Origin: Thermoanaerobaculia bacterium
GTDB taxonomy: Bacteria > Acidobacteriota > Thermoanaerobaculia > UBA5066
Direction: 5' to 3'
Assembly: GCA_963809425.1 (NCBI GenBank)
Contig: CAWEJK010000009.1
Location: forward strand, 319,982-383,981
Length of the DNA stretch: 64,000 bases
Shown here: piece by piece, positions 980-29,652 of the stretch
How the letters are laid out: the number at the start of each line of letters is the position of its first letter
Position numbering within the stretch: the first letter of the stretch is position 1
Translations under genes and position numbers: made by a program
The notes under the pieces: model-generated
What the model saw: only the letters and a program-made list of their open reading frames with translations
Told to the model about the DNA's origin: nothing
The model's database searches: none

Positions 980-1642
980 ATGCCGAGTCCGCTCTCCCTG
1001 CCCGTGCGCGACGCCCTCGAGCTCATCGCGGAATCGAAGGCTCCGGCGTACGGGATGGACCGCCACGACCGCATCGTCTTCTGGAACGAAGGCGCGGAGA
1101 AAGTTCTCGGCTGGTCCACGGAGGACGTCCTCGGAAAGGCGTGCTTCGACGTCCTCGCCGGCCGGGACGTCTTCGGCAACCTCTACTGCACGAAGGAGTG
1201 CCCCGTCGTCGGGTCCGTCATCGCCGGCGATGACGTGCGGCCCTACCTTCTCGAGGTGAAGAAGAAGGGATCGGGCTCCGTGAAGCTCATCGTCCGCGCC
1301 GTTCCGCTGCCCGCGGCGGGTCCGTCGTTCGCGGTGCTCATGCACTTCCTCGAGACGGAGGGACCGGAGCTCGACAACCTGGTCTCGTTGCTGAGGTCGG
1401 CCGTGCGCGCGCCGGCCGGTCTCCCTCCCGTCGATCCTCCGATTTCCGTTTCGCCGCTCAGCGGGCGCGAGAGGGAGATCGTGATGCTGCTCTCGAACGG
1501 CTATGCGGCGCTCAACATCGCGGCGAAGCTGAATCTGTCGCACGCGACGGTGCGAAACCACATCCAGAACGTCCTCCGGAAGCTCGAGGTGCACAGCCAG
1601 GTCGAGGCCGTCGCGCTCGCGTTCCGGCGCGGCTGGATCTGA
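980..1642 (+). CDS. PAS-sensor / LuxR-family helix-turn-helix transcriptional regulator
   Basis: An internal ATG at 980 begins MPSPLS. A PAS-like segment follows (DRHDRIVFWNEGAEKVLGWSTEDVLGKACFDVL). The C-terminus is a LuxR/GerE HTH (REREIVMLLSNGYAALNIAAKLNLSHATVRNHIQNVLRKLEVHSQVEAVALAF). The portion of ORF 101..1642 upstream of 980 belongs to the permease reading frame. Confidence 0.7.
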   Translation: MPSPLSLPVRDALELIAESKAPAYGMDRHDRIVFWNEGAEKVLGWSTEDVLGKACFDVLAGRDVFGNLYCTKECPVVGSVIAGDDVRPYLLEVKKKGSGSVKLIVRAVPLPAAGPSFAVLMHFLETEGPELDNLVSLLRSAVRAPAGLPPVDPPISVSPLSGREREIVMLLSNGYAALNIAAKLNLSHATVRNHIQNVLRKLEVHSQVEAVALAFRRGWI

Positions 1643-1663: not shown

Positions 1664-2611
1664 TCAGGTCGCGGGGCGGATTCCCGTTTGGAGGGCTTCG
1701 AGGAAGCCGGCGCGCGCGAACGCGCGGGAGTCCTCCCGCCGCTCGAGGCTCATGCTGCCCCGTACCTCCTCGAGCGAGGTATGGCCGTGGGTCTCGAGCC
1801 ACTTCTCGATCTCCCGGCGCACGACCTTCAGGTGGCCGGGACCGTTCTGGAGAAGAGCCGAGACCATCTGCACGACGTCCGCGCCGGCGAGAATCGCCTT
1901 CAACGCATCGGCGCCGGTATGGACGCCGCCCGTCACGGCGAGGGACAGGTCCACGCGGCCCGAGATCATCGCGATCCAGTAAAGGCGTGAGAGCAGCTCG
2001 GTCGAGCTCGAGAGGCGCAGGTCCGGCTTCACTTCCTGCGTCTCGAGGTCGATGTCCGGCTGGTAGCTCCGGTTGAAGAGGACGAGCCCGTTCACGCCGA
2101 TCTCCTCGAACTGCCGCGCGAGCGACGCGATCGAGGAAAAATACGGAAAGATCTTCACGGCGACCGGGATCGACACGAGCGAGCGCACGGTCCGAACCGT
2201 GTCGAGGGTGTACGCCTCGAGCGTCGCGCCGCTCGTCCAGAGATTCGTGGACAGGTGGTAGATGTTCAGCTCGAGCGCGTCGGCTCCGGCCTGCTCGAGG
2301 AGTCCCGCGAACGATGTCCAGCCTTCCTCGGTCGTCCCGTTGAGCGACGCGACGACCGGAACATGGACCGATTCCTTGACCCGGTTCAGGTGCTCGAGGT
2401 AGCCGACGGGATCCGTGGGTGTGCGCTGGGTGCGGAGGGGGTCGGCCGTGATCTGTTCCTCGAAGAGCGAGTGGAGCACGATGGCCGGCGCGCCCGCATC
2501 CTCGAGGCGCAGGATCGAATCGAGATTCGCGGTGAGGGGGCCCGCTCCCGCGACGAGCGGGTTCGCCAGCCTGAGCCCGAGGTAGGTTGTCGTGAGATCC
2601 ACTGCATTCAA
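1664..2611 (-). CDS. Class-1 dihydroorotate dehydrogenase-like FMN oxidoreductase (DHOD/DHPD TIM-barrel family)
   Basis: 315 aa with a typical DHOD family N-terminus (LANPLVAGAGPLTANLDSILRLEDAGAPAIVL) and C-terminal glycine-rich FMN-phosphate segment (VTGGVHTGADALKAILAGADVVQMVSAL). It is the last gene of the cytochrome operon. Confidence 0.7.
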   Translation of the reverse strand: MNAVDLTTTYLGLRLANPLVAGAGPLTANLDSILRLEDAGAPAIVLHSLFEEQITADPLRTQRTPTDPVGYLEHLNRVKESVHVPVVASLNGTTEEGWTSFAGLLEQAGADALELNIYHLSTNLWTSGATLEAYTLDTVRTVRSLVSIPVAVKIFPYFSSIASLARQFEEIGVNGLVLFNRSYQPDIDLETQEVKPDLRLSSSTELLSRLYWIAMISGRVDLSLAVTGGVHTGADALKAILAGADVVQMVSALLQNGPGHLKVVRREIEKWLETHGHTSLEEVRGSMSLERREDSRAFARAGFLEALQTGIRPAT

Positions 2612-2667: not shown

Positions 2668-4131
2668 TCACTTGACGCCGAGCTCCGCGAGCACCTTCGG
2701 GTTCGCCTCGTCCTGCGCGAGCACGGCGTGGCAGGCGTCACACTCGGCCGAGATCACACGCCCGTCGGCCGCCTTGTGGCTGCCGTCGTGACAGCGAAAG
2801 CAGCCCGGGAAGTCCTCGTGGCCGAGGTGGTTCGGGTGCGTTCCCCAGGAGATCTTCATGTTCGGCCAGACGTTCCGGCCGTAGATCTTCTGGACCTCGC
2901 GCACCGCGGACTCGACGGTGGCGCGTCGGGCCTGGTAGACGTCCGGGTACTTCGTCTTGTAGAACTCCGTGAGGTCCGTGTCCATGCGTTGGAAGGCCTC
3001 CTCGCGGGTCGGGTACGCAATCTTGAGCACCTCGAGCGATTTCTTGTGGATGAACGGCAGGTCGGGGTTGATGCGGCCCAGGGCCATCGCCTCGTTCACC
3101 GCGCGCTCGGGAAGCTGGAACGCGTGCGTCGGCCGGTTGTGGCAATCGATGCAGTCCATCGTGCGCAGCTCGGCTTTCGGCGCCGCGGGCCCGGCCTTGG
3201 CCTCTTTCGGCGTCTCGGTCGACGCGTACTCCACCGACTTCCCGTCGTCCCCGAGGTACGTCACGGAGTCGATGACCTCGCGGCGCGGGCTCGTCGTGAG
3301 GTACGAGATCCGCTCCTTGTCGTCGAAGTGCCGCCCGTGGATGCCGACCGCCCTGGATCCCATGCGGCCGCCGAGCTTGAGCAGAAGGACGGTCTTCGTC
3401 GGCGTGTTCTTCTCGTCGTCGCCGAATTTCGAGATGATCTTGAGCCGGTCTCCGGTGAATTTCTGCGGCCAGTGGCACTGCTCGCAGGTGGCGCGCGCGG
3501 GCCGAAGCGTGTGCACGGGCGACGGGATCGGGCGCGCGTAGGTTCCGAACGCGACCGCGATGACCTGCCGCACGCCGTCGACCTTCGCCTTGACGACCCA
3601 GGGCGCGCCGGGTCCGATGTGACAGCTCGCGCACGCGATCCGCGAATGCGGCGAGTCGAGGTATGCCGTGTACTCGGGCGCCATCACCGTGTGGCACGTC
3701 AGGCCGCAGAAACGGGAGGAGTCCATGTACTCGACCCCCATATAGGCCGAGAGGCTCAGGATCACGACGTTGACCACCGTGAGGCCGGCGATGAGGATGA
3801 CCGCGCGGCGGAGGTTCGCGTCCCCGAGGTCCACCTTCGGATATTCCGTGGGAAGCGTCCCCTCCCGGCGCAGCCGGCGACGCTCGAAGAAAATCCCGAC
3901 GGGGATGAGAAGAAGACCCACGAGGAAGAAGAACGGCAGGACGAGGATGAAGACGATGCCCGAGTACGGATGGACGGGCTTCGAGTTCATCGTCTCGAAG
4001 AGCCAGAATCCGACGAGCGTCACCGCGGCGCTCGTCGTGAGTCCGACGCCGATCTGCGAAACGCGGTTCCGCCCCAGATAGAAGAGTGGCCTCAGCCACC
4101 CCGAAAGGGGGCCGGATTTCGCCTCGGTCAT
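2668..4131 (-). CDS. Membrane-anchored multihaem c-type cytochrome (NapC/NirT/ImcH-like), putative quinol dehydrogenase
   Basis: 487 aa with three N-terminal hydrophobic helices. Five canonical CxxCH motifs are present (CASCH, CEQCH, CIDCH, CFRCH, CDACH) plus one CGLTCH (CX3CH) motif. Confidence 0.8.
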   Translation of the reverse strand: MTEAKSGPLSGWLRPLFYLGRNRVSQIGVGLTTSAAVTLVGFWLFETMNSKPVHPYSGIVFILVLPFFFLVGLLLIPVGIFFERRRLRREGTLPTEYPKVDLGDANLRRAVILIAGLTVVNVVILSLSAYMGVEYMDSSRFCGLTCHTVMAPEYTAYLDSPHSRIACASCHIGPGAPWVVKAKVDGVRQVIAVAFGTYARPIPSPVHTLRPARATCEQCHWPQKFTGDRLKIISKFGDDEKNTPTKTVLLLKLGGRMGSRAVGIHGRHFDDKERISYLTTSPRREVIDSVTYLGDDGKSVEYASTETPKEAKAGPAAPKAELRTMDCIDCHNRPTHAFQLPERAVNEAMALGRINPDLPFIHKKSLEVLKIAYPTREEAFQRMDTDLTEFYKTKYPDVYQARRATVESAVREVQKIYGRNVWPNMKISWGTHPNHLGHEDFPGCFRCHDGSHKAADGRVISAECDACHAVLAQDEANPKVLAELGVK

Positions 4132-4153
4132 GTGGTTCCTCCGCGAAGAATGA

Positions 4154-4909
4154 TCAGGACAAGAGAGCGTACAGCGTCAGGGTCACGAGGAGAAGTCCGA
4201 GCAGCACCGCCGTCGTACCGATGATCCGCCCGCGCTTCAGGATCTCCGGGCCGGGCGCCGGCGCCGCGATTTCCTCGAGCGCGCCGTCCGCGACGAGGCG
4301 GGCATATTCGGCGGGACGCTCGTGCCGGACCTCGTCCAGGGGCAGAACTCCCGTGAAAATGACCGTGTCCATCGGGAACTTCTCGGGCCGAAGGTGCCCG
4401 TTGAAGAAATGAACCGTGAAGATGAAAACGGTGGCGAGAAGCGCCTCCTCGCCGTGAATGAGGAGCGCCACGTTGAAGAGATCCCCGGGCAGGAAGCGAG
4501 CCCAGAACCTCGGGAACCAGAGGATGAGGCCCGAGCCGCCGATGATCCCCATTCCCCAGAACACGGCCCAATAGTCGAATTTTTCCCAGTAGGTGAAGCG
4601 GTCGAACTCGGGCCGCGGGCCCCTGCCGACGAACCAGCGCACGTGTCCGACGAGCTGCTTGAGATCCTCGAGGCGCGGCACCATCGAGCGCGCACCCCAG
4701 AGGAGGCCGTAGTCGCGGTCGCGGAAGATCCTCTTCAGGAGGCGCGCGAGGTGCAGGCCGAACGTGAGCAGCATGCAGATGGCGAAGACGCGGTGCAGGA
4801 AGCCCGCCGCCTGGAAGCCTCCCACGACCCGCGAGAGTTTCGCGGCCCACGCGCGCTCGGAGAAGAGAAGCGGGAGCCCCGTGAAGGAGAGCCCGAGGAA
4901 GCTCGCCAT
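4154..4909 (-). CDS. Dihaem cytochrome b membrane subunit (Ni/Fe-hydrogenase/FdnI-type cytochrome b family)
   Basis: 251 aa with 4-5 predicted TM helices and conserved His-containing helices (FLHRVFAICMLL, LIHGEEALLATVFIFTVHFFNGHLRPEK). It sits directly upstream of an 11-haem cytochrome, as in Geobacter Cbc complexes. Confidence 0.6.
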   Translation of the reverse strand: MASFLGLSFTGLPLLFSERAWAAKLSRVVGGFQAAGFLHRVFAICMLLTFGLHLARLLKRIFRDRDYGLLWGARSMVPRLEDLKQLVGHVRWFVGRGPRPEFDRFTYWEKFDYWAVFWGMGIIGGSGLILWFPRFWARFLPGDLFNVALLIHGEEALLATVFIFTVHFFNGHLRPEKFPMDTVIFTGVLPLDEVRHERPAEYARLVADGALEEIAAPAPGPEILKRGRIIGTTAVLLGLLLVTLTLYALLS

Positions 4910-5010
4910 CAGGAGGACGTGGAGCGAGCGGTCGTACCCGTCGAACCGGCGGACCCAGCCCGTCGTCGCCGCCTACTCGGCGGCCGGAGGTGCGGGAGAC
5001 TCTTCGGGCA

Positions 5011-6252
5011 TCACGCTTCTCCCCCCCTCTTCGCATCGGCGTCCCGGCGCGCCTTCACCGAGCGCGGGAACCAGAGCACGGTGTGGATCCCGAAGAAGGC
5101 GAAGACGCCCACGAGCAGGATCTTCATGAAGAGCGAGGTCGCCCAGAGCAGCTGGCTTCGTCCCCGGTCGTGCGTGTCGGCGTGCGGGTCGTATTTCGCG
5201 AAGCTCGCTCCGACGCCGGGATGACATTTCTGGCAGGTCGCGACGCGCTTCGCGGGCCCGACGGACGAGCGCGCGTCGCCGGCCGGGTGAATCTCGTGCG
5301 CCGTGTGGCAGTCCGCGCAGGTCGCCACGCGGGTGAAGCCCATCGCGCTGACCTGACCGTGATAGGTGTCGCGATAGGTCTTGAGCTGGCGCTCGTGACA
5401 GCCGCCGCACTCATGGAGGATCTGGAGGCGCCGGACCTCGGGAGCCGCCGTGATCGCGTGCGCGGTATGGCAGTCGGCGCAGACGGGCACCTTCAGGTTG
5501 TTCTTCGCGAGCTGCTCGCCGTGGATCGAGGTCGCGTACTCGTCGAGAATCTTCGAGTGGCACGTGCCGCAGGTCGCGGGGATCTTCGATCGAAACACGA
5601 GGCTCTCGGGATCCGTCCTCGGATCGCGGATGGCATGCGCCCCGTGGCAGTTCGCGCAGTTCGGCGCGACCGCGAGCCCGCTCTTCTCGAGCGCCTTGCC
5701 GTGGATGCTGTCGTGGAAGAGGGCGGGCTGGTTCACCGCGGGTCCGCCCGCGCCCGGCACCACCGCGATGTTCGCGTGGCACCTCAGGCAGGTCGTCGGG
5801 AGATTGAAGTGATTCGTCCGCGAAGCGGGGTCCTTCGACGGCCGGATGTCGTGGATCCCGTGGCAGTCCGTGCAGGTCGCTGCCTTGCTGGCCTTCGATT
5901 TCCCGCGCTCTGCGGCATGCACGCTCTTCCGATACTCCTCGACCTCCGACGCGTGGCAGGAGGCGCAGTCGACCGGGGCGAGCTTCTCGGCGTGGGGAAA
6001 ATCCGTCGTCCGGGCCAGGTCCTGGTGGCAATCGACGCAGGCGGCACCGGCGGCCCCGTGCACGGAGTCGCCGAACGCTTTCTTGTCCACGAAAAGGGAG
6101 GACCCATCTGCCCTCTTGGCGGATGGGTCCTCGTGGCAGGCGAGACAGTCGTCGTTCGGCGGGAGGCTTCGGGGCGGCGGCGGGGCCGCCGCCCGGAGGG
6201 GGGCGGCCGTGAACAGAAACGCGGCGAGTACGCCCCCGAGCCTCATCCGCAT
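5011..6252 (-). CDS. Undecahaem c-type cytochrome with signal peptide and C-terminal transmembrane anchor
   Basis: 413 aa with an N-terminal signal peptide (MRMRLGGVLAAFLFTAAPLRAAA) and 11 CxxCH motifs (CLACH, CVDCH, CASCH, CTDCH, CLRCH, CANCH, CGTCH, CADCH, CGGCH, CADCH, CQKCH). A C-terminal hydrophobic helix (LLWATSLFMKILLVGVFAFFGIHTVLWF) precedes a basic tail. Confidence 0.8.
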   Translation of the reverse strand: MRMRLGGVLAAFLFTAAPLRAAAPPPPRSLPPNDDCLACHEDPSAKRADGSSLFVDKKAFGDSVHGAAGAACVDCHQDLARTTDFPHAEKLAPVDCASCHASEVEEYRKSVHAAERGKSKASKAATCTDCHGIHDIRPSKDPASRTNHFNLPTTCLRCHANIAVVPGAGGPAVNQPALFHDSIHGKALEKSGLAVAPNCANCHGAHAIRDPRTDPESLVFRSKIPATCGTCHSKILDEYATSIHGEQLAKNNLKVPVCADCHTAHAITAAPEVRRLQILHECGGCHERQLKTYRDTYHGQVSAMGFTRVATCADCHTAHEIHPAGDARSSVGPAKRVATCQKCHPGVGASFAKYDPHADTHDRGRSQLLWATSLFMKILLVGVFAFFGIHTVLWFPRSVKARRDADAKRGGEA

Positions 6253-6256
6253 CGAT

Positions 6257-6586
6257 TTACTTGGACGCGGGATCGCCGGGGTTCGTCCCCTTCTTGAGCT
6301 CGTCGCCGTTCGACACGCCGTCTCCGTCGCTGTCCAGCTTCTCGAGAGCGACGAAATCGTACTTGCCGTCCTTGCCCTTCACCTTGTTGAGGTCCGCGCC
6401 GAACTTGTTCACGGCGGCCTCGCCCTTCTTCGGCATGGCCTTCGTGTGGCAGGACCCGCATTTGACCTTTGAGTCGGGATACTTCTTCAGAACTTCCTTC
6501 TGGAGATCCATCGCGGCGAACGCCGAGCCCGCGACGAGCGCGGCGGCCGAGGCGAGGGTGACGACTGCGAGACGTGTCTTATTCAT
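6257..6586 (-). CDS. Secreted monohaem cytochrome c with an acidic DxDGDG segment
   Basis: 109 aa with a signal peptide (MNKTRLAVVTLASAAALVAGSAFA) and a single CGSCH motif. The C-terminal segment (LEKLDSDGDGVSNGDELKKGTNPGD) resembles a calcium-binding loop. Confidence 0.7.
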   Translation of the reverse strand: MNKTRLAVVTLASAAALVAGSAFAAMDLQKEVLKKYPDSKVKCGSCHTKAMPKKGEAAVNKFGADLNKVKGKDGKYDFVALEKLDSDGDGVSNGDELKKGTNPGDPASK

Positions 6587-6599
6587 GTCGCTGTTTCCT

Positions 6600-8537
6600 T
6601 CAGGGGCGCCACTTGAGGTAGACGCCGATTCGATTCGCGCGGAAGCTGCTCGATGCGATCTGATAGTCGAGATAGCGGTCGACAGACCACTCGCCGATGA
6701 GTCCGACGTTCGCCGTCGCGTCGAAGTCGACGCGGGCGCCGCCGCGATAGAGACGGTATTCGTAAGTGCCCTCGTTCGCGAAGCGGGTCCAGAAGCCGTC
6801 GATGGCCAGCTTGTCGAACTTGACGCCCAGGCCGGCTTCCAGGAGCTCGCCGTCTTCCTTGTTGACGGAGTCGAACGTCGTGAAGTCCTGCGGAGCGCGG
6901 ACGGGGATCCTGCTGTCGGCCTGCATCTTGCCGTAGGCCCCGTGGAGCCGCAGCATCTTGACCGGCGTGATCGTGACGTCGCCCGTGTACTGGCGCGACG
7001 TGCCCTTGGAGTTGATGAGAAGCGTGTCGTTCTTCTGGTCGACCCAGAGACCGGTTGCGCCGAGCGTGAGCCACGGGAAGCCCTTCCAGGTGGCGCGCAC
7101 GCGCTCGCGGTTGCGGCTCGTGAAGTCGGTCCTGAGAACCGCCACGTCCGCGTCGTCCCACGACACCTCGCCCGCGATGAAGAATCCGCCCGCCGCGTAC
7201 GTGAGGGCGCCCTCGTAACGGTTGATCGTGCGGTCGAAGTTCCCGCCCTGACCGCCCGGGACGACGATCTCGGCCGGATCCTCCGAGACGACGAGGTTCT
7301 GCTGCGTCTGCGACCATCCGGCGCGGATGCCGAAGGGCCCGAAGACCTTCGCGGACGCCTGGACGTCGTAAACGTCTTCCGTGCGCTCGATGGAGTTCTT
7401 CGCGTTCAGCAGCGTCTGGAGGTCGGCGAGCGTGAAGCCCGTGAACGTCGTGGTGCCGCTGTACAGGGTGCTCACGAGGTCCTGGCCGTCCCACGTGGCG
7501 TTGCGACGGACGAAACCGCCCGTCACGTCGACGCCCTCGAGGGCGTGCCACTCGACGCGCGCGCCGGCTCGCCAGACGGAGTTCTGGACGCGGGACGACG
7601 CACTCTCGGTGAGGCCGGTGAAGAAGCGCGAGATGGGGAACGACACGAGGGAGCCGGAAGCGCTCTCTTTTTCCGTGTCGTCTCCGGACGCGTTCGCCTT
7701 GACGTAGAAGCCGATCAGCTGAAGGGAATCGGTCGCGAAACCGCGCAGGAACACCGAGGTCGTCGGGGTGTTGATGTCGGTGACGCTCGTGCGTGAGTAG
7801 GAAGAGAGGTTCAGGTTCTTGTCGAGCACAGGACCCGGGTTGTTGCCGGCGCCCGCCCCGTTGAGGAGGCTGAGCGTCTCGGTCTCCCGGTAGCGGCGCC
7901 AGCCCTGGAGAAACTCGCCCGACACCGGTCCGGCGCGGAAGCCGGCGCCGACGCGGATCTCCTGGTCGTGGACCTTGAGATCCTGCCCGAGGCGAAATTC
8001 ATCCTGGCCGAGAAAGGTCGTCGAAAATCCCGGACCCTTCAGCTTGTTGGACGTGTACCCGACGAGAGGCGTGACGACGGCCCCGGGCAGAAGCTCGAGG
8101 TTGAGGTCCACCATGTCCCGGGTCCGATCCCAGGTCTGCTGACCGACCGGCGCGCCGAGCGGATTCGCGAAGCCGGCGAGCGCGCTGAACTGATCGAGGT
8201 GGCGATAGGAGGCACGGAGGCGATAGGCGCCCGTGAGGCCCGCATCGAGCCTCAGGGACCCGGCGGGGCCGGCCCCGAGCTCGGAGCCGTCGATCCGGAG
8301 GCGGTCGAGAATCGGGAATCCGTTCGTTTTTCCGTCCTCGCCGATGTGGATGCTGCGCACGAGAACCCCTTCGCTCTCGTTGATCTGAGAGCGATAGGAC
8401 TCTTCGCTGCCGCTGAGAGTGAGAAAGCGGTAGCCCACCTCGATGTCGAACGGAATCGCCTGGGCACGGGCGACGCCGGCCGAACCGAGGACGGAGGCGA
8501 GAGCGGCGACGAGGAAGGCGGAGCGGAATGTTCGCAT
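6600..8537 (-). CDS. Outer-membrane beta-barrel protein, MtrB/PioB-like porin partner of the decahaem cytochrome
   Basis: 645 aa with a signal peptide (MRTFRSAFLVAALASVLGSAGVARAQA). The sequence has alternating beta-strand-like character with many aromatic strand ends and C-terminal ...YLKWRP. It lies immediately downstream of the MtrA-like gene (stop 8548, start 8537), the same order as mtrA-mtrB. Confidence 0.6.
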   Translation of the reverse strand: MRTFRSAFLVAALASVLGSAGVARAQAIPFDIEVGYRFLTLSGSEESYRSQINESEGVLVRSIHIGEDGKTNGFPILDRLRIDGSELGAGPAGSLRLDAGLTGAYRLRASYRHLDQFSALAGFANPLGAPVGQQTWDRTRDMVDLNLELLPGAVVTPLVGYTSNKLKGPGFSTTFLGQDEFRLGQDLKVHDQEIRVGAGFRAGPVSGEFLQGWRRYRETETLSLLNGAGAGNNPGPVLDKNLNLSSYSRTSVTDINTPTTSVFLRGFATDSLQLIGFYVKANASGDDTEKESASGSLVSFPISRFFTGLTESASSRVQNSVWRAGARVEWHALEGVDVTGGFVRRNATWDGQDLVSTLYSGTTTFTGFTLADLQTLLNAKNSIERTEDVYDVQASAKVFGPFGIRAGWSQTQQNLVVSEDPAEIVVPGGQGGNFDRTINRYEGALTYAAGGFFIAGEVSWDDADVAVLRTDFTSRNRERVRATWKGFPWLTLGATGLWVDQKNDTLLINSKGTSRQYTGDVTITPVKMLRLHGAYGKMQADSRIPVRAPQDFTTFDSVNKEDGELLEAGLGVKFDKLAIDGFWTRFANEGTYEYRLYRGGARVDFDATANVGLIGEWSVDRYLDYQIASSSFRANRIGVYLKWRP

Positions 8538-8547
8538 CGGCCTGTCC

Positions 8548-9459
8548 TTACTTCAGCAGCTGCGGCGAGCGCTGGGAACCGTGCACGGCGATGTGACAGG
8601 TCGTGCAGTTCTTGTAGCGCGGCAGCGAGATATTGTGGAAAGAAGGCGGCTGCGAGCCCAGAGTCCCCTTCGCGAGCGTCGAGTGACACTCGAGACACTG
8701 CGAGGCGATCGTGGCCCTCTGCAGCTGGTGGGGATACGAGGAGCCATGCGGGATGTGGCAGCTCGTGCAGTCGCCGGCGACACCGTTGACGTGGGGATAG
8801 ACGAACGGACCGCGCACTTCCGCGTGACAGGAGACGCAGCCGGGCTCACCCGCCCGGGTCTCGCGCACCGCGTGCTTGGCCGAACGGCCGTGCGGGTCGT
8901 GGCAGGACACACAGGAGAGCGCCCCTTCTTTCAGCCTGTGTGCGTACGGAAGCGTCCGGAAGGAGGACGCCGCGTCCTGATGGCAGGTCGCGCAGAGCCG
9001 CGTCGGCTCGGACACGAGCAGGTTCGCCTGCTTCGGGCTCGACTTGTGGATCGCGTGGCACGAGAGGCAGTTGACCGCCTCGGACGACGCATGAACTCCC
9101 GTCTTGAACGACGAGCGCTCCGCGGACTGCTTGTGACAGGTCGCGCACGTCTCGGCGCCGGTACGGCCATGGAGCGTCCGGATGAGGGTCTTGTCCCCCC
9201 CGGCCTCCATGTGCTTCGTCCCGTCGCCGTGACACGTGGCGCAAACCTCGTTGCCCAGGGCGCCCTCGTGGGCGGCGCCGTAGGCACGCGTGTGGGGATT
9301 ACCCGCGAAAATCTTGGCCTCGTCGTGGCAGTCGGCGCACGCGGGGCCGGCCTCCACCTTCGCGGGAGCCGGGCTGGCTGGGGCCTGGGCCGTGGCCACC
9401 CCCGCCGTGAGCACGGCGAGGGCGGCGGCGGCGAATGCCCCGGGCGAGAGGTGTTTCAC
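8548..9459 (-). CDS. Periplasmic decahaem c-type cytochrome, MtrA/DmsE/PioA family
   Basis: 303 aa, GTG start, with signal peptide and exactly ten CxxCH motifs (CADCH, CATCH, CATCH, CLSCH, CATCH, CVSCH, CVSCH, CTSCH, CLECH, CTTCH). About 30 aa per haem is characteristic of the MtrA family. Confidence 0.8.
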   Translation of the reverse strand: MKHLSPGAFAAAALAVLTAGVATAQAPASPAPAKVEAGPACADCHDEAKIFAGNPHTRAYGAAHEGALGNEVCATCHGDGTKHMEAGGDKTLIRTLHGRTGAETCATCHKQSAERSSFKTGVHASSEAVNCLSCHAIHKSSPKQANLLVSEPTRLCATCHQDAASSFRTLPYAHRLKEGALSCVSCHDPHGRSAKHAVRETRAGEPGCVSCHAEVRGPFVYPHVNGVAGDCTSCHIPHGSSYPHQLQRATIASQCLECHSTLAKGTLGSQPPSFHNISLPRYKNCTTCHIAVHGSQRSPQLLK

Positions 9460-9471
9460 GGCCTCTACTCG

Positions 9472-11598
9472 TTACCGCGCGTGAACTTTCGCGACGTCGA
9501 GATCGGTTCCGGTGCCGTGGCAGGTTCCGCAGGCCTCGGCAGGAGCGGTCGGGTCTTTCGGGAAGAACGCCGTGTTGAGGAATGCGTGCGCGGCGACGTC
9601 GCGGCTGTCATGGCAGCCGGTGCATGCGGCAGTCGCCGAGCCGCGCGGGGAGAAGAAGTCGCGATCGGTGACGACCGGAACGTTCGTGAGCGGGAGCGGG
9701 AGCGCGTAGCTGGCCGCGTTCACGTGGCAGGCGAGGCAGTTCCGGCGGTCGCCGGGGTACAGAACCTCGTTGAAGCTGGCCCCGGTGCCGGAGTTGCCGA
9801 AGATCGTGAAGTCCTGCGTCAGATTCTCGCCCGTGTGGATGCGGTGGATCATGCGCGCGAACTCGATCGACTCGCCGGGGGCGTCCTCGGGCTTGGCACG
9901 ACGGGCAAGGTCGGTGCCGTTCGGGTTGTGGCAGATGACACAGTGCTCGATCGTGATGCGCTGGTTGCCGTGCGAGAAGAGGACCTTGAGGTCCTGGTGG
10001 CACGAGTTGCACTTCGTGAGAGAGACGACCGTCCTGCGCGGAACGACCGTCGTGCCCGTGACCGCGAAGGAAAACGGCTGGTTCGGGGCGCCCTCGTTGA
10101 CCGAGGTCGGGCCATTCGTCGGGGCCGGGTTCAGCACGATCGGGCGGCGCGTGTCGATCGAGACGGTGTACGAGCCCTTGGCCGCGGCCGGGAGGGCGTT
10201 CGTGAACGTGTATGTCGCGGTGCCCGTGGCCGCGTCATAAGTGACCGGTGTCCCGCCCGTGGGCGGAATGGCCGGGCTCTCACTGAACGGCTGGCCGTTC
10301 GCGGCCATGCCGGCGTTCGTGTAGTCGGTCGTCGGTCCGCCGAGTTTGATGCTGAGGGAGCCGTTCGAGGAGGTCTTGTAGATAGTCGGGTCGACGAACG
10401 AGCCGTCGCCGTTCTTGAGCTGGAATTTCACGGTGATCTTCTTGCCGGGGCCCGCGTTCGAAACCGAGAGGATCGTGGCCGTGTAGCCCTTGAGCTGGGC
10501 CGAGTGGAGCGGAACGACGTGGGCGTTCTTGATGCCGGCGTCCCACTCGACGTCGCCCTGGGGCTTATGGCAGTCCACGCACGTGCCGTCCGCGGCCGGT
10601 CCGACGTTCGAGTGGTTCGCGCCCGTGACGAAGTTCACGTCGCTGTGGCAGGAGCCGCAGGCCGCGATCGAGGGCTTCGTGTACCAGCTGTCTCCGCCGA
10701 CCGCCGTCTTGTCGTGGCAGGACTCGCAGTTGCGGATGTCCTGCGGGTACGTCATGCCCGGAACGACCTCCTCTTCCAGCCCCGCGTGGATGCGGTGCCA
10801 GAAGACCTGGCCGTTGTACCGGCCGCGGTCCTCGCCCGGCTCGCCGCCCGAGCCGGCGATCAGGCCCGTCATGTTGTTCGGGTTGTGGCACATCGTGCAC
10901 GTCTTGAGGTCACGGTAGTTGCCGCCGTGCAGCGCGAGCGGGTCGTGGCACTGGTTGCACTTCGCGAGCTTCGAGGCGTTCCACGTCGTCGCGACCGCGT
11001 TCGTGGACGGGACGAAGTCCAGGTACTGCGGCACCGCGTAGTACTGCTTGCCGATGATGTCGGTCGTGTTGCGCGCGCCCATGACGGCGAGCGTGTGCGG
11101 CTTCGTCGCGTCCATCGTCGCCGGGAGGGCGTTCGCGAACGTGTACTTGTAGTGGCCGGTCTCGAGCTCCTGGAATGTGCCCGTGTTGTCGCGGCCCGGG
11201 TTCGCGTTCTTGGCTGGGTCCGCGTTGAAGCCGATGTAGTTCGTGTAGTACTTCTTCGTCGCGTCCCAGACGGCCGGGATGAACCGGATCGAGATGACGC
11301 CCGGCGTCAGAAGGCCGTTGCGGTCCAGGGGTCCCTTCAGGTCGTCGGTCATGAAGATCTCGACGACGGGCTTCTGGCCCGCCGCGAAGTTCGTGACCGA
11401 GGCGATCTTCAGGTTGAAGCCCGGGCGGATGTACGTGAGCTGGTCCGGCGCGAGGAAGGCTTCCTTCTGGGTGGACGCGTAGGCCACCGGAACGTCGGCC
11501 GCCGCCGGGGTATGGGGGCTGGTGCGCGTCACGGGCGTCATGGGCACCGCGACGAGACCAGCGAGGAGAGTAAGAGCCGTACGTGATACCAGTGACAT
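9472..11598 (-). CDS. Large secreted/outer-surface decahaem c-type cytochrome, OmcA/MtrC-like
   Basis: 708 aa with an AAGGAGG ribosome-binding site 7 nt upstream of the ATG at 11598 and a signal peptide. Ten CxxCH motifs fall in two penta-haem groups (CNQCH, CTMCH, CESCH, CGSCH, CVDCH; then CNSCH, CVICH, CLACH, CTGCH, CGTCH). A T/S/G-rich beta-domain separates the two groups. Confidence 0.7.
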   Translation of the reverse strand: MSLVSRTALTLLAGLVAVPMTPVTRTSPHTPAAADVPVAYASTQKEAFLAPDQLTYIRPGFNLKIASVTNFAAGQKPVVEIFMTDDLKGPLDRNGLLTPGVISIRFIPAVWDATKKYYTNYIGFNADPAKNANPGRDNTGTFQELETGHYKYTFANALPATMDATKPHTLAVMGARNTTDIIGKQYYAVPQYLDFVPSTNAVATTWNASKLAKCNQCHDPLALHGGNYRDLKTCTMCHNPNNMTGLIAGSGGEPGEDRGRYNGQVFWHRIHAGLEEEVVPGMTYPQDIRNCESCHDKTAVGGDSWYTKPSIAACGSCHSDVNFVTGANHSNVGPAADGTCVDCHKPQGDVEWDAGIKNAHVVPLHSAQLKGYTATILSVSNAGPGKKITVKFQLKNGDGSFVDPTIYKTSSNGSLSIKLGGPTTDYTNAGMAANGQPFSESPAIPPTGGTPVTYDAATGTATYTFTNALPAAAKGSYTVSIDTRRPIVLNPAPTNGPTSVNEGAPNQPFSFAVTGTTVVPRRTVVSLTKCNSCHQDLKVLFSHGNQRITIEHCVICHNPNGTDLARRAKPEDAPGESIEFARMIHRIHTGENLTQDFTIFGNSGTGASFNEVLYPGDRRNCLACHVNAASYALPLPLTNVPVVTDRDFFSPRGSATAACTGCHDSRDVAAHAFLNTAFFPKDPTAPAEACGTCHGTGTDLDVAKVHAR

Positions 11599-11835
11599 CG
11601 TCAGCCTCCTTGCCGGAAATGAATTTGCGAAACGTTAACGAACAGACGTTCGAAGGAAGTGGCCGTTTTCATCCGATGGTCAGAGTAGGAGCAAGGCCAT
11701 ACCGAAGCTTTGATTCAGTTGCATCAAATTACTGCAAGGTACAAGCTTGGGGTTTGTCCGGCACATATTGATCAGAAAGAGGTAATCTCCTCCGAACAGC
11801 AGGTCCGCTTCTCGGAACTCTCGTTGGAGTACCTT

Positions 11836-13530: not shown

Positions 13531-14805
13531 TCAGGTGACGGCCGGACCCTCGTCCGCGAAGCGCCGCCAGCGCTCCTCGTCGAGCACACGCCGGAACCGC
13601 GCGACCGCTTCGACGAGGTCGGAAAACCGCGTCGCGAGCGGCGAGAGCCCGAAACGGATCAAGTCGGGCGGCCGGAAGTCGGGAATGACGTTCATCTCCC
13701 CGATGAGCGCGCGGTCTACGGCGAGGCCCTCGGGGTGGCCGAACGAGACGTGCGCGCCGCGCCGCGCGGCGTCGCGCGGCGAACGCAGCGTCACGCCGCG
13801 CGTTTCGAGAGCCGACTCCCACAGGCGCACGAGGAACTCCCCGAGGGCCACGGTCTTCTTCCGGGCCGGCTCGATACCCGCCTCGAGCGCGAGGTCGACA
13901 CCCGCCTCCGCGCCGACGAGCGAAAGGATCGGCGGCGTGCCCACGAGGAACCGCGAGATGTCCCGCGCCGGCTCGTACCCGTCCCGGAACGAGAAGGGCT
14001 CGTGGCGCGAGAACCAGCCGGGAATCGGGTTCTGAAGAGTCTCCTGCAGCGCGCGGCGCACGTAGAGAAAGGCGGGCGCGCCCGGCCCTCCGTTCAGGTA
14101 CTTGTACGTGCAGCCGACCGCGAGATCCGCGCCGGACGCCTCGAGGTCGACCTGGACCGCGCCGACGGAATGGCTGACGTCCCAGAGAACGAGCGCGCCT
14201 TTCGCGTGGGCGCGCGCCGTGACCGCCGGGAGGTCGTGGAGGAATCCGCTCCTGTAAGCGACGTGCGACAGCGACACGAGCGCCGTGTCCTCCGTGATGG
14301 CTGCGCCGAGATCCGCGTCGTCGATCGCGATGCCGTCGCGCGACGGGACGACGACGACGCCGTGTCCCGCCTCCAGGAGGGCCGCCGCGCCTTCGAGGAC
14401 GTAGAGATCCGACGGAAAGTTCAAAGCGTCCGTGACGATCGTGCGGCGTCCGCGCCGCGCCCGGAGCGCCGCCACGGCGAGCTTGAAGAGATTCACGCTG
14501 GTGCCGTCGGACACGGCGACCTCGCCGTCCCCCGCGCCGAGGAGACGCGCGAGCTTGTCGCCGACGCGGCGCGGCGCGTCCACCCACCCGTCGTTCCAGC
14601 CCCGAACGAGGCGCGCGCCCCATTCCTCCTGGACGGCGCGCCCGACGAGAGCCGCCGACCTCTTCGGCAACCGCCCGAGCGAATTGCCGTCGAAATAGAG
14701 GAGGTCCTCGTCGTCGAACACGAACTCGTCGCGGAAGCGCGCAAGCGGGTCCGCGCGGTCGAGCGACCGGGCCTCCTCGCGGAGCGCTTCCCAGGGAATC
14801 GTCAA
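13531..14805 (-). CDS. kynU: Kynureninase-like PLP-dependent enzyme (aminotransferase class V fold)
   Basis: The N-terminal ~175 codons of ORF 13531..15321 are R/G-rich junk overlapping hemL. The real protein starts at a TTG whose last base overlaps the hemL TGA stop (TTGA, 14802-14805). Kynureninase-type motifs are present (LLYFDGNSLGRLPK, ...VGCTYKYLNGGPGAPAFLYV). Confidence 0.55.
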   Translation of the reverse strand: MTIPWEALREEARSLDRADPLARFRDEFVFDDEDLLYFDGNSLGRLPKRSAALVGRAVQEEWGARLVRGWNDGWVDAPRRVGDKLARLLGAGDGEVAVSDGTSVNLFKLAVAALRARRGRRTIVTDALNFPSDLYVLEGAAALLEAGHGVVVVPSRDGIAIDDADLGAAITEDTALVSLSHVAYRSGFLHDLPAVTARAHAKGALVLWDVSHSVGAVQVDLEASGADLAVGCTYKYLNGGPGAPAFLYVRRALQETLQNPIPGWFSRHEPFSFRDGYEPARDISRFLVGTPPILSLVGAEAGVDLALEAGIEPARKKTVALGEFLVRLWESALETRGVTLRSPRDAARRGAHVSFGHPEGLAVDRALIGEMNVIPDFRPPDLIRFGLSPLATRFSDLVEAVARFRRVLDEERWRRFADEGPAVT

Positions 14806-16163
14806 CCGCCGGCCGGAAGTGAAAAGGCCGCTCTCAGCCCGGCTTCGTGAGCCTTCACGGTGGCCGCGACGTCGCGTGCCGTGTGCGCGGTCGAGACGAA
14901 CATCGCTTCGAACTGCGCCGGAGCCACGAAGACGCCGCTCCGGAGCAGCGCGTGGAACCAGCGCTTGAACGCTTCGAGGTCGGACTTCTTCGCGTCGTCG
15001 AAGTTCTTCACGGGGCCCACGGTGAAGAACGGCGTCAGGATCGATCCCACGCGGTTGATCGAGACGCGGTCCTGGACGCCGAGCTTCTTCGCGGCGGCGT
15101 TCAGCCCGCGTTCGAGCTCCTTCGCGGTCTTCTCGAGCTTCACGTAGACGGCGGGCGTCAGGCAATCGAGCATCGCCTTCCCCGCCGCCATCGCGAGCGG
15201 GTTCCCGGAGAGCGTTCCGGCCTGGTACACGGGGCCGTCCGGCGCGATCCGCGCCATGAGGTCCGCGCGGCCGCCGTAGGCGCCGACGGGCAGTCCCCCG
15301 CCGATGATCTTGCCGAGGCACGTCAGGTCGGGCCGGATCCCGTACAGCTCCTGCGCTCCGCCTCTCGCCACCCGAAAGCCGCTGATGACCTCGTCGAAGA
15401 GCAGCAGCGCTCCTTCGCGGTCCGCGATGCGGCGGAGGCCCTCGAGAAAGCCCGGGGCAGGCGCCACGACGCCCATGTTCGCGGCGATCGGCTCGACGGC
15501 GATGACGGCGATGCGCTTCGGATGCGCCCGAAAGAGGTCCTCGACGGACTCCAGGTCGTTGTAACGCGCGGTCAGCGTGAGGCCGGCGAGAGAGCTCGGG
15601 ACGCCGGGCGAGCCCGGAATGCCGAGCGTCGCGAGACCCGAGCCCGCCGAAACGAGAAACGAGTCGGCGTGCCCGTGGTAGCAGCCCGCGAACTTCAGGA
15701 CGAGGTCGCGGCCCGTGGCGCCGCGCGCGAGGCGCAGCGCGCTCATCGCGGCCTCCGTTCCCGAGGACACGAACCGCACCTTCTCGATCGACGGGAAGGC
15801 CTTCGTGACGCGCTCGGCGAGCTCGACCTCCCCCTTCGAAGGCGCGCCGTAGGACGTGCCGCGCGGCAACGCCCTGCGGACCGCCGACAGGACCGGCCCG
15901 TACGCGTGCCCGAACACGAGCGGCCCGTACGACATGACCCAGTCGACGTACCGGTTCCCGTCCGCGTCGATCAGGGTCGCGCCGCGGCCCTTCTTCACGA
16001 AGAACGGCTGGCCGCCCACGGACGCGAACGAGCGCACCGGCGACGACACGCCGCCTGGCATGCGTTTCTTGGCTCGTTCGAAGAGCGCTTCGGATTGAAG
16101 AGTTCTGCGGTGACGCTTTCGACCGGTAGTGGCGCTTCGTGCTGATTTATCGCTCATCGTCAT
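14802..16163 (-). CDS. hemL: Glutamate-1-semialdehyde 2,1-aminomutase
   Basis: 453 aa with family hallmarks (ALFERAKKRMPGGVSSPVRSF, ...DEVISGFRV...). The exact start within the first ~30 codons is uncertain. Confidence 0.9.
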   Translation of the reverse strand: MTMSDKSARSATTGRKRHRRTLQSEALFERAKKRMPGGVSSPVRSFASVGGQPFFVKKGRGATLIDADGNRYVDWVMSYGPLVFGHAYGPVLSAVRRALPRGTSYGAPSKGEVELAERVTKAFPSIEKVRFVSSGTEAAMSALRLARGATGRDLVLKFAGCYHGHADSFLVSAGSGLATLGIPGSPGVPSSLAGLTLTARYNDLESVEDLFRAHPKRIAVIAVEPIAANMGVVAPAPGFLEGLRRIADREGALLLFDEVISGFRVARGGAQELYGIRPDLTCLGKIIGGGLPVGAYGGRADLMARIAPDGPVYQAGTLSGNPLAMAAGKAMLDCLTPAVYVKLEKTAKELERGLNAAAKKLGVQDRVSINRVGSILTPFFTVGPVKNFDDAKKSDLEAFKRWFHALLRSGVFVAPAQFEAMFVSTAHTARDVAATVKAHEAGLRAAFSLPAGG

Positions 16164-16372
16164 GTCGCATTTCTTTCTGCTATGCGGCGGCCGCTTTGCG
16201 GCCGCCGACGGAAGTCAATCTCTGCCCGAATGTCCGGTGTCAAGGGCGCGCTCGCGCGCCGCGCAGCGGTCACCGACCCTTGACATCGGACATTCGGGAG
16301 CACATTCGTTTCTTCGGGTGGCCGCGAATGCGGCCACCGATAGCAGGAACCCCCTCTTTCTTCCCTCTTCTT
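16164..16372. repeat. ~210-bp palindromic MITE/REP-like intergenic element (copy A) between hemL and hemB
   Basis: Terminal inverted repeat CTGCTAT...ATAGCAG. Internal GC hairpins are GCGGCGGCCGC-TTT-GCGGCCGCCG and GGTGGCCGC-GAAT-GCGGCCACC. The central long hairpin is CCCGAATGTCCGG-TGTCAAGGG-[32 nt]-CCCTTGACA-T-CGGACATTCGGG. The element is flanked by pyrimidine tracts (TTTCTTTCTG and CTCTTTCTTCCCTCTTCTTCTAAG). The core is ~85% identical to copy B at 44222-44436. Confidence 0.6.
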
Positions 16373-18102: not shown

Positions 18103-18130
18103 GGCGCGAGGATACCCAGTCGCGAGCGCA

Positions 18131-29612: not shown

Positions 29613-29652
29613 GCGGTTCGGCAGGGGCGATATTGAATTTCTTAGAAGGCGA

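Follow-up and report, generated by a model that had tools for sequence, protein, structure and literature searches.

A seven-gene multihaem cytochrome operon

The window (i.e., the whole 64,000-nt stretch analyzed) comes from a soil acidobacterium MAG of the class Thermoanaerobaculia, Acidobacteriota, in keeping with the non-proteobacterial lineage proposed in the first-pass annotation. As described there, seven consecutive co-directional genes lie on the minus strand between 2668 and 11598, with the first three in the order mtrC-mtrA-mtrB and with haem-biosynthesis genes close by (Table 1). Intergenic spacers across the seven genes are 12, 10, 13, 4, -1 (overlap) and 22 nt, and each gene can be assigned, judging from its sequence, to an already known family or architecture. 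The earlier estimate of ~48 haems has to be lowered, as the motif count is 38 for c-type haems (10 + 10 + 1 + 11 + 6), to which two inferred b-haems would be added (~40).

Table 1. Positions of the operon genes, upstream elements and nearby haem-biosynthesis genes in the window.
Feature	Positions	Strand	Description
imcH-like	2668..4131	-	487-aa inner-membrane NapC/NirT/NrfH-type cytochrome
cytochrome b gene	4154..5011	-	FdnI/HydC-type, CbcB-like, 285 codons, 5 predicted TM helices
11-haem cytochrome	5011..6252	-	413-aa, signal peptide, 11 CXXCH, CbcA-like c subunit
monohaem cytochrome	6257..6586	-	109-aa, signal peptide, C-terminal TSP3-type Ca-binding repeat
mtrB-like	6600..8537	-	645-aa, predicted 26-strand outer-membrane beta-barrel, remote MtrB homologue
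mtrA-like	8548..9459	-	303-aa periplasmic decahaem cytochrome, MtrA/DmsE family
mtrC-like	9472..11598	-	708-aa OmcA/MtrC-family decahaem cytochrome, signal-like N-terminus
palindrome CGAAC-N4-GTTCG	11639..11652	-	~40-55 nt upstream of mtrC ATG
inverted repeat TTTGATGCAACTGAATCAAA (TTGAT-N8-ATCAA)	11709..11728	-	~110-130 nt upstream of mtrC
hemX-like/hemA/hemC/hemD/hemB/hemL	14802-21468	-	haem biosynthesis, near operon
hemE	21362-22423		haem biosynthesis, near operon
radical-SAM gene + hemH	28185-30639		haem biosynthesis, near operon

Upstream of the operon, the inverted repeat TTTGATGCAACTGAATCAAA has one copy in the window, where none is expected by chance, and each of 14 close-clade loci also has exactly one, identically placed; no Rfam match was found for it. 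This invariant non-coding sequence is a candidate operator or promoter element. The palindrome nearer to mtrC retains its arms across 12 aligned upstream regions (one substitution in 1 of the 12 loci), with a variable spacer, and an AAGGAGG motif stands 6 nt 5' of the mtrC-like ATG.

Two decahaem cytochromes and a cryptic barrel

The MtrC-like protein carries 10 CXXCH motifs in two groups of five (residues 214-340 and 530-690), the two penta-haem groups noted in the first-pass annotation. Its proposed identity is upheld by a match to TIGR03507 well above the cut-off (421.7 vs. 209.3 bits, residues 75-706 on profile positions 6-672 of 672), together with Pfam PF22113 (168.8 bits), and by MtrF as top PDB match (3pmq, E = 4.6e-42, residues 139-706). 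Shewanella MtrC is anchored via a lipobox. No lipobox Cys occurs in the N-terminus of the protein encoded here, whose first Cys is residue 214, and its homologues likewise have no N-terminal Cys; since the lipobox is absent, attachment of this cytochrome at its presumed surface location is only putative.

The MtrA-like protein has 10 CXXCH motifs behind a signal peptide ending in ATAQA. It aligns over its full length with TIGR03508 (184.3 bits, positions 4-256 of 258), 8 bits under the NCBIfam cut-off of 192.2, and matches MtrA of the solved Mtr complex (PDB 6r2q_A, E = 3.9e-23), which confirms the earlier assignment. JGI uses the name "DmsE family decaheme c-type cytochrome" for members of its cluster.

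The third protein, without any CXXCH, was expected to form a barrel of about 26 strands, and it is indeed predicted with 26 strands and with MtrB as its top match by two structure-comparison methods. The profile check proposed for it gave a split answer: profile-profile homology to MtrB reached 97.7% (E = 2e-12), but the curated MtrB/PioB models (Pfam PF11854, NCBIfam) miss the protein. With hhalign against one single MtrB sequence the value is 1.9% only. The protein also lacks the N-terminal CxxC found invariably in Shewanella MtrB, a motif that MtoB and PioB are not known to carry either. As modelled, then, this is an outer-membrane barrel and a remote homologue of MtrB.

Candidate periplasmic carrier and inner-membrane modules

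The monohaem cytochrome (one CXXCH at residue 43, signal peptide ending in AFA) matches PF18884 TSP3_bac at 26.5 bits and, partially, NF041762. It holds the same slot in most close-clade loci, and in the distant locus L081 this slot is taken by a different 109-aa cytochrome c. It is a candidate periplasmic carrier.

The 11-haem cytochrome combines multihaem, NrfB-like and NapC-like Pfam domains with a single C-terminal TM helix (371-389). Two relatives (L024 and L048) have the counterpart of this region and a cytochrome b domain in one polypeptide, and these fused CbcL-type proteins score 57-63 bits on PF01292, a family that the neighboring cytochrome b approaches with 22.6 bits in truncated and 28.1 bits in restored form (cut-off 30.1; TIGR01583 E = 6e-7). 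By its predicted domains and helices, the pair is a split version of the CbcL/MtrH/MtoC architecture, laid out as Geobacter CbcBA.

The last gene encodes a protein with three N-terminal TM helices (27-45, 58-76 and 110-128), a CX3CH at 142 and CXXCH motifs at 167, 216, 327, 444 and 464, none of which varies in A4, and matches PF03264 at 45.2 bits (cut-off 24.1). Residues conserved in Geobacter ImcH (10.1101/2023.05.03.539133) map onto it at a constant +10 offset, including the reported heme-1 ligands and their neighbors. Its predicted layout is that of the published ImcH definition (three TM helices, CX3CH beside the TM domain, 5-9 CXXCH; PMC6295460), a protein implicated so far in quinol oxidation only (PMC6295460). 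The AlphaFold2 model was poor (pLDDT 58). The first-pass descriptions of a monohaem cytochrome, an 11-haem cytochrome with a C-terminal membrane anchor and a membrane-anchored multihaem NapC/ImcH-like cytochrome all hold; for the dihaem cytochrome b, an FdnI-type family member is present, but its gene is interrupted by a TAG in the assembly.

This in-frame TAG (4975-4973) is codon 13 of a gene whose natural ATG, at 5011, shares bases with the stop codon of the 11-haem gene. As a result, the longest uninterrupted cytochrome b ORF (4154-4909, 251 aa) starts too late to include the conserved His of TM1 and the first half of that helix. The longer, Arg-rich ORF in this slot, 4128-5036 (302 aa), is an artefact that lies off the frame of the true gene.

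It is possible, but doubtful, that the operon is partly decayed in this genome, with a real amber codon, a truncated or non-functional Cbc-type branch and the ImcH-type cytochrome as sole entry. The position of the TAG, between the natural ATG and the TM1 His and with no ATG, GTG or TTG between it and Met35, would fit such decay, as would the public annotation of the contig, which calls the 251-aa product only. However, the gene is uninterrupted in 18 of 18 close relatives (ATG ~22 codons before WVRRFDxxDRSLH) and intact, at 285-290 aa, in cluster members at ≥90% identity (the L080 sequence stops short of the TAG site), shows no further damage and a normal GC3 (0.88), and has its TAG within a variable, low-complexity N-terminal tail with a 3-nt length difference from L004. 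Because the relatives are intact, the gene is otherwise undamaged and the tail is variable, a single-base or assembly error in the MAG is an equally plausible source of the TAG. Partial decay would leave the main explanation intact for the remaining operon genes; if the TAG is real, the ImcH branch alone would work.

Conservation of the trio and its linkage

The MtrC-MtrA-barrel trio is conserved in 79 of 79 related loci wherever the contig reaches, and its linkage to ImcH-like and Cbc-like genes is recurrent. Among the 46 loci with full flanks (≥8 kb), an ImcH-like gene lies ≤10 kb from the trio in 26, in three arrangements, both inner-membrane modules are near it in 21, and ~20 have no inner-membrane module within 10 kb; L067-type loci hold the trio alone. 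The order decahaem-decahaem-barrel-monohaem persists in the distant locus L081, where the barrel is ~23% identical. The first-pass suggestion of horizontal transfer gains no support for a recent event, since the flanking genes are syntenic in 12-20 species-level relatives and operon GC is normal (0.667 vs. 0.681 for the window).

Proposed electron path

Given spacers of -1 to 22 nt and the conserved upstream elements, we consider it likely that the seven genes are transcribed together and encode an extracellular-electron-transfer chain along an outward path. In this scheme, two alternative inner-membrane dehydrogenases would take electrons from menaquinol: the ImcH-type cytochrome (three TM helices, six c-haems) and the Cbc-type complex of the 11-haem c subunit, on its one TM helix, and the FdnI-like dihaem b subunit. 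The long multihaem domains, probably together with the small monohaem cytochrome, would carry the electrons across the periplasm to the decahaem MtrA-like cytochrome sheathed by the 26-strand MtrB-like barrel. From there, the MtrC-like decahaem at the cell surface would pass them on to external acceptors such as insoluble Fe(III)/Mn(IV) oxides or humics. The path is drawn from homology, and the quinol-oxidising activity, the outward direction and the physiological acceptor are all presumed.

Mtr-type and Cbc-type modules work in either direction. Electrons might flow inward, which we regard as unlikely: an outside donor (Fe(II), Mn(II), reduced humics, a cathode or another cell acting as partner) would feed them through MtrC, MtrA and the barrel to the Cbc-type module and the quinone pool. 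Such a route is modelled on proposals for MtoAB/MtoC and PioAB, and a barrel devoid of the N-terminal CxxC, a motif not known from MtoB or PioB either, would suit it. CbcL/MtoC/MtrH homologues, moreover, occur in Fe(II) oxidisers and Fe(III) reducers alike, and no sequence feature tells the direction apart (PMC6295460). Against inward flow, a surface MtrC-type decahaem cytochrome is encoded here, whereas the oxidiser clusters named in PMC6295460 (mtoA, mtoB, mtoC, mtoD) list no mtrC, and a cultured class member, Thermoanaerobaculum aquaticum, reduces Fe(III) and Mn(IV) oxides (PMC8528874, PMC9671151), with a syntenic cytochrome/barrel cluster proposed as its only candidate for this activity (PMC8528874).

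It is highly improbable that there is no trans-outer-membrane conduit at all, with an ordinary porin or transporter as barrel and the cytochromes forming a periplasmic chain, e.g., to a soluble acceptor (modelled on DmsEF serving DMSO reductase), even if the barrel fails PF11854 and NCBIfam, the best curated family of the MtrA-like protein is named after DmsE, and at least one remote relative in the barrel superfamily, L082, has no cytochrome genes around it.

Comparison with known systems

The outward chain proposed here shares with Shewanella MtrCAB, which works with CymA (PDB 6r2q), the mtrC-mtrA-mtrB order, an OmcA/MtrC-family surface decahaem, an MtrA-type decahaem and a 26-strand barrel. 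Its inner-membrane modules resemble those of Geobacter. The ImcH-like protein is similar to G. sulfurreducens ImcH in architecture (three TM helices, CX3CH beside the membrane domain), in its NapC/NirT/NrfH-like quinol site and in conserved His, Gln, Lys, Tyr and acidic residues, with 6 c-haems vs. 7 in Geobacter. The Cbc-type pair is built like CbcBA, in which a dihaem b subunit partners a multihaem c subunit that has one TM helix at its C-terminus; Geobacter CbcL is the fused form, as in L024 and L048. The pair differs in c-haem number (11 vs. 7 in CbcA or 9 in CbcL) and in a fifth, C-terminal TM helix of the b subunit.

The first-pass contrast with known systems is right for Geobacter, where ImcH/Cbc genes are unlinked from the porin-cytochrome genes, themselves Pcc/Ext-type rather than Mtr-type, but a contiguous quinone-to-surface wire has precedents. 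In Rhodoferax ferrireducens, a single cluster unites two cymA genes with mtrH and mtrABC (PMC6295460), and in many Mtr groups, including Vibrio/Aeromonas clusters, cymA/netBCD/pdsA adjoin mtrCAB (PMC8805035). These systems, too, cluster an outer-membrane conduit with two or more inner-membrane quinol oxidases, among them a CbcL-family member (PMC6295460, PMC8805035); they use CymA or NetBCD, whereas in the acidobacterial operon ImcH is linked and the CbcL-type protein is split in two genes. A 2018 survey found no mtrAB/mtoAB adjoining any imcH (PMC6295460).

Within Acidobacteriota, Group 5 MtrCAB of Acidobacteriia/Bryobacterales (Baker et al., 2022, PMC8805035) are also Mtr-type conduits, but belong to a different class, and their mtrCAB genes have no inner-membrane quinol oxidase gene nearby. 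That survey does not list Thermoanaerobaculia among its classes, possibly because its search required an MtrB match. A role in metal-oxide reduction is already known as a proposal for the multihaem-cytochrome and beta-barrel clusters of Ca. Sulfomarinibacter and T. aquaticum (Flieder et al., 2021, PMC8528874), although the cluster was not classed there as MtrCAB-type, nor the barrel called MtrB-like. A Ca. Sulfomarinibacter MAG of the same class (L067) has the homologous decahaem-decahaem-barrel trio alone; in the window's clade, the same operon also contains the monohaem, Cbc-type and ImcH-type genes. We found no description in the literature of this ImcH/Cbc linkage to the trio or of the cryptic MtrB family. 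What appears to be new is thus the combination, in one operon, of an Mtr-type conduit whose barrel is missed by standard models with two Geobacter-type quinol oxidases.

Organization of the operon

Seven minus-strand genes occupy positions 2668-11598 of the window, which is GC-rich (0.68), and their spacers of 12, 10, 13, 4, -1 and 22 nt mark out an operon that is both real and coherent (see table). The first-pass annotation had recognized its parts as a surface cytochrome, an MtrA-like decahaem cytochrome, a barrel and inner-membrane quinol-oxidizing modules, and matches in family, fold and architecture show this identification to be correct; the lineage is also non-proteobacterial as proposed, the names of homologues and related loci being those of Thermoanaerobaculia and Acidobacteriota. 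The haem content was put too high, since the motifs amount to 38 c-type haems which, with two putative b-haems, makes ~40 rather than ~48.

Genes of the cytochrome operon, in operon order
Gene	Position	Strand	Product and motifs
mtrC-like	9472-11598	-	708 aa; 10 CXXCH, two groups of five
mtrA-like	8548-9459	-	303 aa; 10 CXXCH
barrel (mtrB-like)	6600-8537	-	645 aa; no haem motif, no Cys
monohaem cytochrome	6257-6586	-	109 aa; 1 CXXCH
11-haem cytochrome	5011-6252	-	413 aa; 11 CXXCH; one C-terminal TM helix 371-389
cytochrome b	4154-5011	-	5 predicted TM helices
imcH-like	2668-4131	-	487 aa; three N-terminal TM helices; one CX3CH; five CXXCH

Within the window's clade the flanks of the operon are kept, with hemB, hemL, kynureninase and M11-like peptidase genes to one side and genes for a dihydroorotate (DHO)-dehydrogenase-like protein and a PAS-LuxR regulator to the other, and the GC content of the operon (0.667 vs. 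0.681 for the window) is unremarkable. Syntenic flanks and ordinary GC indicate that the locus has been vertically inherited in this clade, which rules out a recently transferred island and leaves the mobility earlier ascribed to the operon overstated. The DHO-dehydrogenase-like gene (1664-2611, minus strand) encodes an FMN protein and follows the imcH-like gene, in the same orientation, after 56 nt; it holds that position in 17 loci and, judged from this placement, could be an eighth gene of the operon.

Several other features of the window were recorded alongside. A Bacillus-like haem operon, hemX(CcsA-family)-hemA-hemC-hemD-hemB-hemL, runs from 14802 to 21468 (minus strand), with hemE at 21362-22423 (plus strand) and a radical-SAM (HemN-like?) gene and ferrochelatase at 28185-30639 (plus strand); hemB and hemL still adjoin the cytochrome operon in 14 related loci. 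Three small adjacent ORFs of 117, 93 and 82 aa (26864-27781, minus strand) have an unusually high second-codon-position GC (0.64-0.67) and no Pfam match. At 48877-53077, a DUF5777 membrane beta-barrel gene adjoins a large CarboxypepD_reg/Plug/OMP_b-brl_4 TonB-dependent-type receptor, a pair that appears unrelated to the cytochrome operon.

A remote MtrB homologue missed by curated models

The barrel is labeled “hypothetical protein” in public records, and the profile search suggested by the first-pass annotation does not retrieve it: its score against PF11854 is 15.8 bits (cut-off 23), no NCBIfam MtrB/PioB model matches at E<=0.1, a Pfam scan of ten distant full-length relatives found no PF11854 match, and PDB sequences searched with a profile built from 30 close barrels yielded no MtrB. 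Its identity is settled by structure, at the level of a predicted model. The AlphaFold2 model (pLDDT 80, pTM 0.73) contains 26 beta-strands in an MtrB-like fold, the number anticipated in the first-pass annotation, and its best PDB match in Foldseek is MtrB of the solved Shewanella Mtr complex (6r2q_B, E=9.4e-15, TM 0.65), as against about 1e-8 and TM 0.44 for 22-strand TonB-dependent transporters.

Homology at the sequence level surfaced only once both alignments were widened. The MtrB query was checked against 6r2q_B (1399 bits), and the 6r2q_B sequence and its Shewanella homologues were used afterwards. Aligning the 30 close barrels to a single MtrB sequence with hhalign gave 1.9%; aligning 54 barrel-family sequences to 20 Shewanella MtrB gave a probability of 97.7% (E=2.1e-12, 530 columns), and on this profile comparison the barrel is a remote MtrB homologue, not merely an analogue. 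The N-terminal CxxC of Shewanella MtrB, whose two cysteines (C42 and C45) are invariant among the 20 Shewanella sequences, is absent from the barrel. An exhaustive HMM search of the barrel family returned 1,136 clusters at 50% identity.

Genomic context was assessed in 79 species-level loci retrieved with the barrel, and the barrel adjoins a decahaem MtrA-type gene in every one of these where the contig reaches upstream. Farther out, a 738-aa member of the barrel superfamily (locus L082, 6001-8217, protein P0249; E=2.5e-49 to the profile) sits on a 52%-GC contig among a Big/dockerin/EF-hand protein, a luciferase-like protein and a copper ATPase, with no multihaem cytochrome neighbors, and the wider superfamily is therefore not exclusively cytochrome-associated.

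Predicted outer-membrane cytochromes

By its sequence, the 708-aa protein is a full-length member of the OmcA/MtrC family: it scores 421.7 bits against TIGR03507 (cut-off 209.3), with residues 75-706 covering positions 6-672 of the 672 in the profile, and its best solved relative is MtrF (3pmq, E=4.6e-42). Its CXXCH motifs fall at 214-340 and 530-690, giving two pentahaem domains set apart by non-haem domains, and the PF22113 domain II/IV model is matched twice.

MtrC and OmcA of Shewanella carry a lipoprotein signal with a lipobox Cys. The MtrC-like protein has no such residue, its first Cys being at position 214, and none is found in homologues across the family where the start is clear. In the close clade (loci L002-L079 compared), the N-terminal 25 residues, MSLVSRTALTLLAGLVAVPMTPV (in the N-terminal region at 11500-11598), are near-invariant, and the mature protein is held more loosely, at 59-83% identity; in more distant homologues the stretch has a common ending, A-G-x-x-(A/S)-(V/F)-P, again with no lipobox Cys. 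Instead of an ordinary signal peptide, this N-terminus may represent a sorting signal.

The MtrA-like protein carries a signal peptide, aligns with MtrA of the solved Mtr complex (6r2q_A) over residues 71-297 (E=3.9e-23) and scores 184.3 bits against the DmsE/MtrA model TIGR03508 (cut-off 192.2), covering positions 4-256 of 258; in JGI records, proteins of its 90% cluster carry the name “DmsE family.” A DmsEF-type system was rejected, as no reductase genes are present. A Geobacter Pcc/Ext-type conduit was likewise rejected, the GSU2203-family score of 141.9 bits lying far below its cut-off (325) and also below the DmsE-family score.

Inner-membrane modules

ImcH is defined by three N-terminal TM helices, an atypical CX3CH adjoining the membrane domain and 5-9 CX2CH motifs (PMC6295460), and the ImcH-like protein has this architecture, with helices at residues 27-45, 58-76 and 110-128, CX3CH at 142 and five CXXCH. 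All six haem motifs are invariant in 33 homologues. Its NapC/NirT/NrfH-like quinol-interacting domain matches PF03264 over residues 111-198 (45.2 bits, cut-off 24.1), and its 47.7 bits against NrfH (TIGR03153) fall below the equivalog cut-off, as expected of a protein related to NrfH without itself being one. The conserved heme-1 ligands and residues of Geobacter sulfurreducens ImcH, E127, H137, K173, Q179 and Y188 (10.1101/2023.05.03.539133), correspond by spacing and at a constant +10 offset to D137, H147, K183, Q189 and Y198, each invariant or at least 90% conserved in the 33 homologues. The best 120 homologues are all acidobacterial. The AlphaFold2 model of this protein is poor (pLDDT 58, pTM 0.37).

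The 11-haem cytochrome and cytochrome b reproduce the CbcBA architecture of Geobacter, a likeness in architecture only: a 413-aa c subunit with 11 CXXCH and a single C-terminal helix, next to a separate FdnI-like b gene, for a total of 1+5 = 6 TM helices. The one-polypeptide layout of CbcL, in which an N-terminal multihaem c domain leads into a C-terminal HydC/FdnI-type dihaem b domain, with about six TM helices, is not that of the window, where c and b parts are two genes. In some relatives these parts are fused, as in L024 (742 aa, 12 CXXCH) and L048 (631 aa, 11 CXXCH), whose b domains reach 62.7 and 57.6 bits against PF01292 and whose architecture is that of CbcL/MtrH/MtoC. Fused 12-haem c-b cytochromes of 736-750 aa were located in L024 (12987-15215), L057 (12900-15152) and L059 (12975-15185); with them come two or three tandem monohaem genes and extra 18-19-haem cytochromes of 616-948 aa downstream of the MtrC-like, MtrA-like and barrel genes (L024 16919-19765, L057 16591-19386).

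Reading the cytochrome b gene requires some care. The long ORF at 4128-5036 is an Arg-rich off-frame artefact, and the true frame starts with the ATG at 5011, overlapping the stop codon of the 11-haem gene by 1 nt. It reads MPEESPAPPAAE, then an in-frame TAG at 4975-4973 (codon 13), ahead of the conserved TM1 motif WVRRFDGYDRSLH and the conserved His of TM1. The frame is open here in all 18 close relatives, proteins in its 90%-identity cluster are intact at 285-290 aa, and the public annotation of the source contig has only a truncated 251-aa product. A second 251-aa call (P0571 in L080) is no evidence on the TAG, being merely cut by a contig end. The TAG may be a real nonsense allele, or it may be an assembly error. 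Against PF01292 (cut-off 30.1), the protein scores 22.6 bits as it stands, and replacing the TAG raises this to 28.1 bits.

Distribution among relatives

The decahaem-decahaem-barrel trio is kept in all 79 loci wherever the contig reaches, and even in L081, a locus on a 59%-GC contig, a barrel of ~23% identity comes after two decahaem genes and before a monohaem gene. Among the 46 loci flanked on each side by 8 kb or more, an ImcH-like gene occurs within 10 kb of the trio in 26, and in 21 of the 46 cytochrome b does as well. Three arrangements were distinguished: the ImcH-like gene directly downstream of the trio, as in the window (~18 loci); downstream and accompanied by additional cytochromes and a fused c-b protein with 12 haems (L024, L057 and L059); or divergent and upstream (a dozen loci). 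That linkage is kept across these rearrangements argues for a functional connection between the trio and the ImcH- and Cbc-type inner-membrane modules.

Candidate regulatory elements

Two palindromes upstream of mtrC are candidate operator sites by their pattern of conservation. The first, a 20-nt inverted repeat TTTGATGCAACTGAATCAAA (TTGAT-N8-ATCAA; 11709-11728, minus strand), has one copy in the window and one per locus, invariant and in the same place, in 14 related loci, where chance would lead one to expect none. The second, CGAAC-N4-GTTCG (11639-11652, minus strand), has conserved arms around a variable spacer, with one substitution in the arms in one of 12 aligned loci. There was no real Rfam match in the region upstream of mtrC, both palindromes included; a scan for sigma-70 consensus promoters was negative, and terminator-like sites were no more frequent than expected from shuffled sequence.

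A PAS + LuxR/GerE-type regulator is encoded convergently just past the operon (~980-1642, plus strand) and is a candidate operon regulator. It is kept at this place in 18 close-clade loci, with weaker relatives close to the trio in L075 and L077. The ORF listed as 101-1642 continues upstream of the regulator into a hydrophobic segment, probably another gene.

Proposed electron path

The best-supported reading of the operon is an outward extracellular-electron-transfer chain, its parts identified by homology, fold and genomic linkage and its activities, localization, direction and acceptor being those we infer. Menaquinol would be oxidized by the ImcH-type and Cbc-type dehydrogenases; electrons would then pass the periplasm via multihaem domains, perhaps also the monohaem cytochrome, be carried across the outer membrane by MtrA enclosed in the barrel and exit at the surface through MtrC. 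Inward flow through the same chain is less likely. The outward direction is favored because a predicted MtrC-type surface cytochrome is present, because quinol oxidation is the only role known for ImcH (PMC6295460) and because the only cultured member of the class reduces Fe(III) and Mn(IV) (PMC8528874, PMC9671151).

The operon is a concrete candidate for metal-oxide respiration in Thermoanaerobaculia, which are abundant and widespread in soils and sediments. With ImcH- and Cbc-type oxidases linked to an Mtr-type conduit on a single 9-kb fragment, the coupling of these modules to the conduit becomes testable. Since the curated models do not recognize the barrel, an HMM survey in which an MtrB match is required would overlook this lineage, and iron-cycling gene inventories may be too low.

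Comparison with known systems

MtrCAB has been reported in Acidobacteriia, without neighboring quinol oxidases, in a survey where Thermoanaerobaculia were not among the classes reported (PMC8805035). Within Thermoanaerobaculia, MtrC and MtrA were flagged in a Thermoanaerobaculum aquaticum MAG by FeGenie-based work (PMC9671151), and for Ca. Sulfomarinibacter and T. aquaticum Flieder et al. reported syntenic clusters of multihaem cytochromes with a beta-barrel, which they proposed to serve metal-oxide reduction (PMC8528874). A homologous trio is present in L067, a Ca. Sulfomarinibacter MAG, and taken with those clusters this means that the trio is not new. Nor is the operon as singular as first claimed, given the all-in-one Mtr clusters of Rhodoferax, Vibrio and Aeromonas (PMC6295460, PMC8805035).

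As for the inner-membrane entry, a 2018 survey states that no imcH linked to an Mtr-type conduit was found (PMC6295460), and in the searchable literature we found no description of such a linkage, of a split or fused Cbc-type partner in an Mtr operon, or of the barrel as a cryptic MtrB family. The system differs from that of Shewanella in that its MtrC-like protein is without a lipobox and its barrel without CxxC. No new principle is involved: the families of all the components are known, and Proteobacteria also have all-in-one Mtr clusters.

Our tentative view, held with slightly more doubt than confidence, is that this Thermoanaerobaculia operon is self-contained and joins a Shewanella-type conduit to a Geobacter-type entry (ImcH, Cbc-type), with a barrel from a large MtrB-related family (>1,100 clusters at 50% identity) invisible to the MtrB/PioB models of Pfam and NCBIfam. 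If true, Mtr-type capacity is systematically under-counted in environmental genomes, and the operon would be a compact candidate if an entire quinol-to-surface pathway were to be transplanted.
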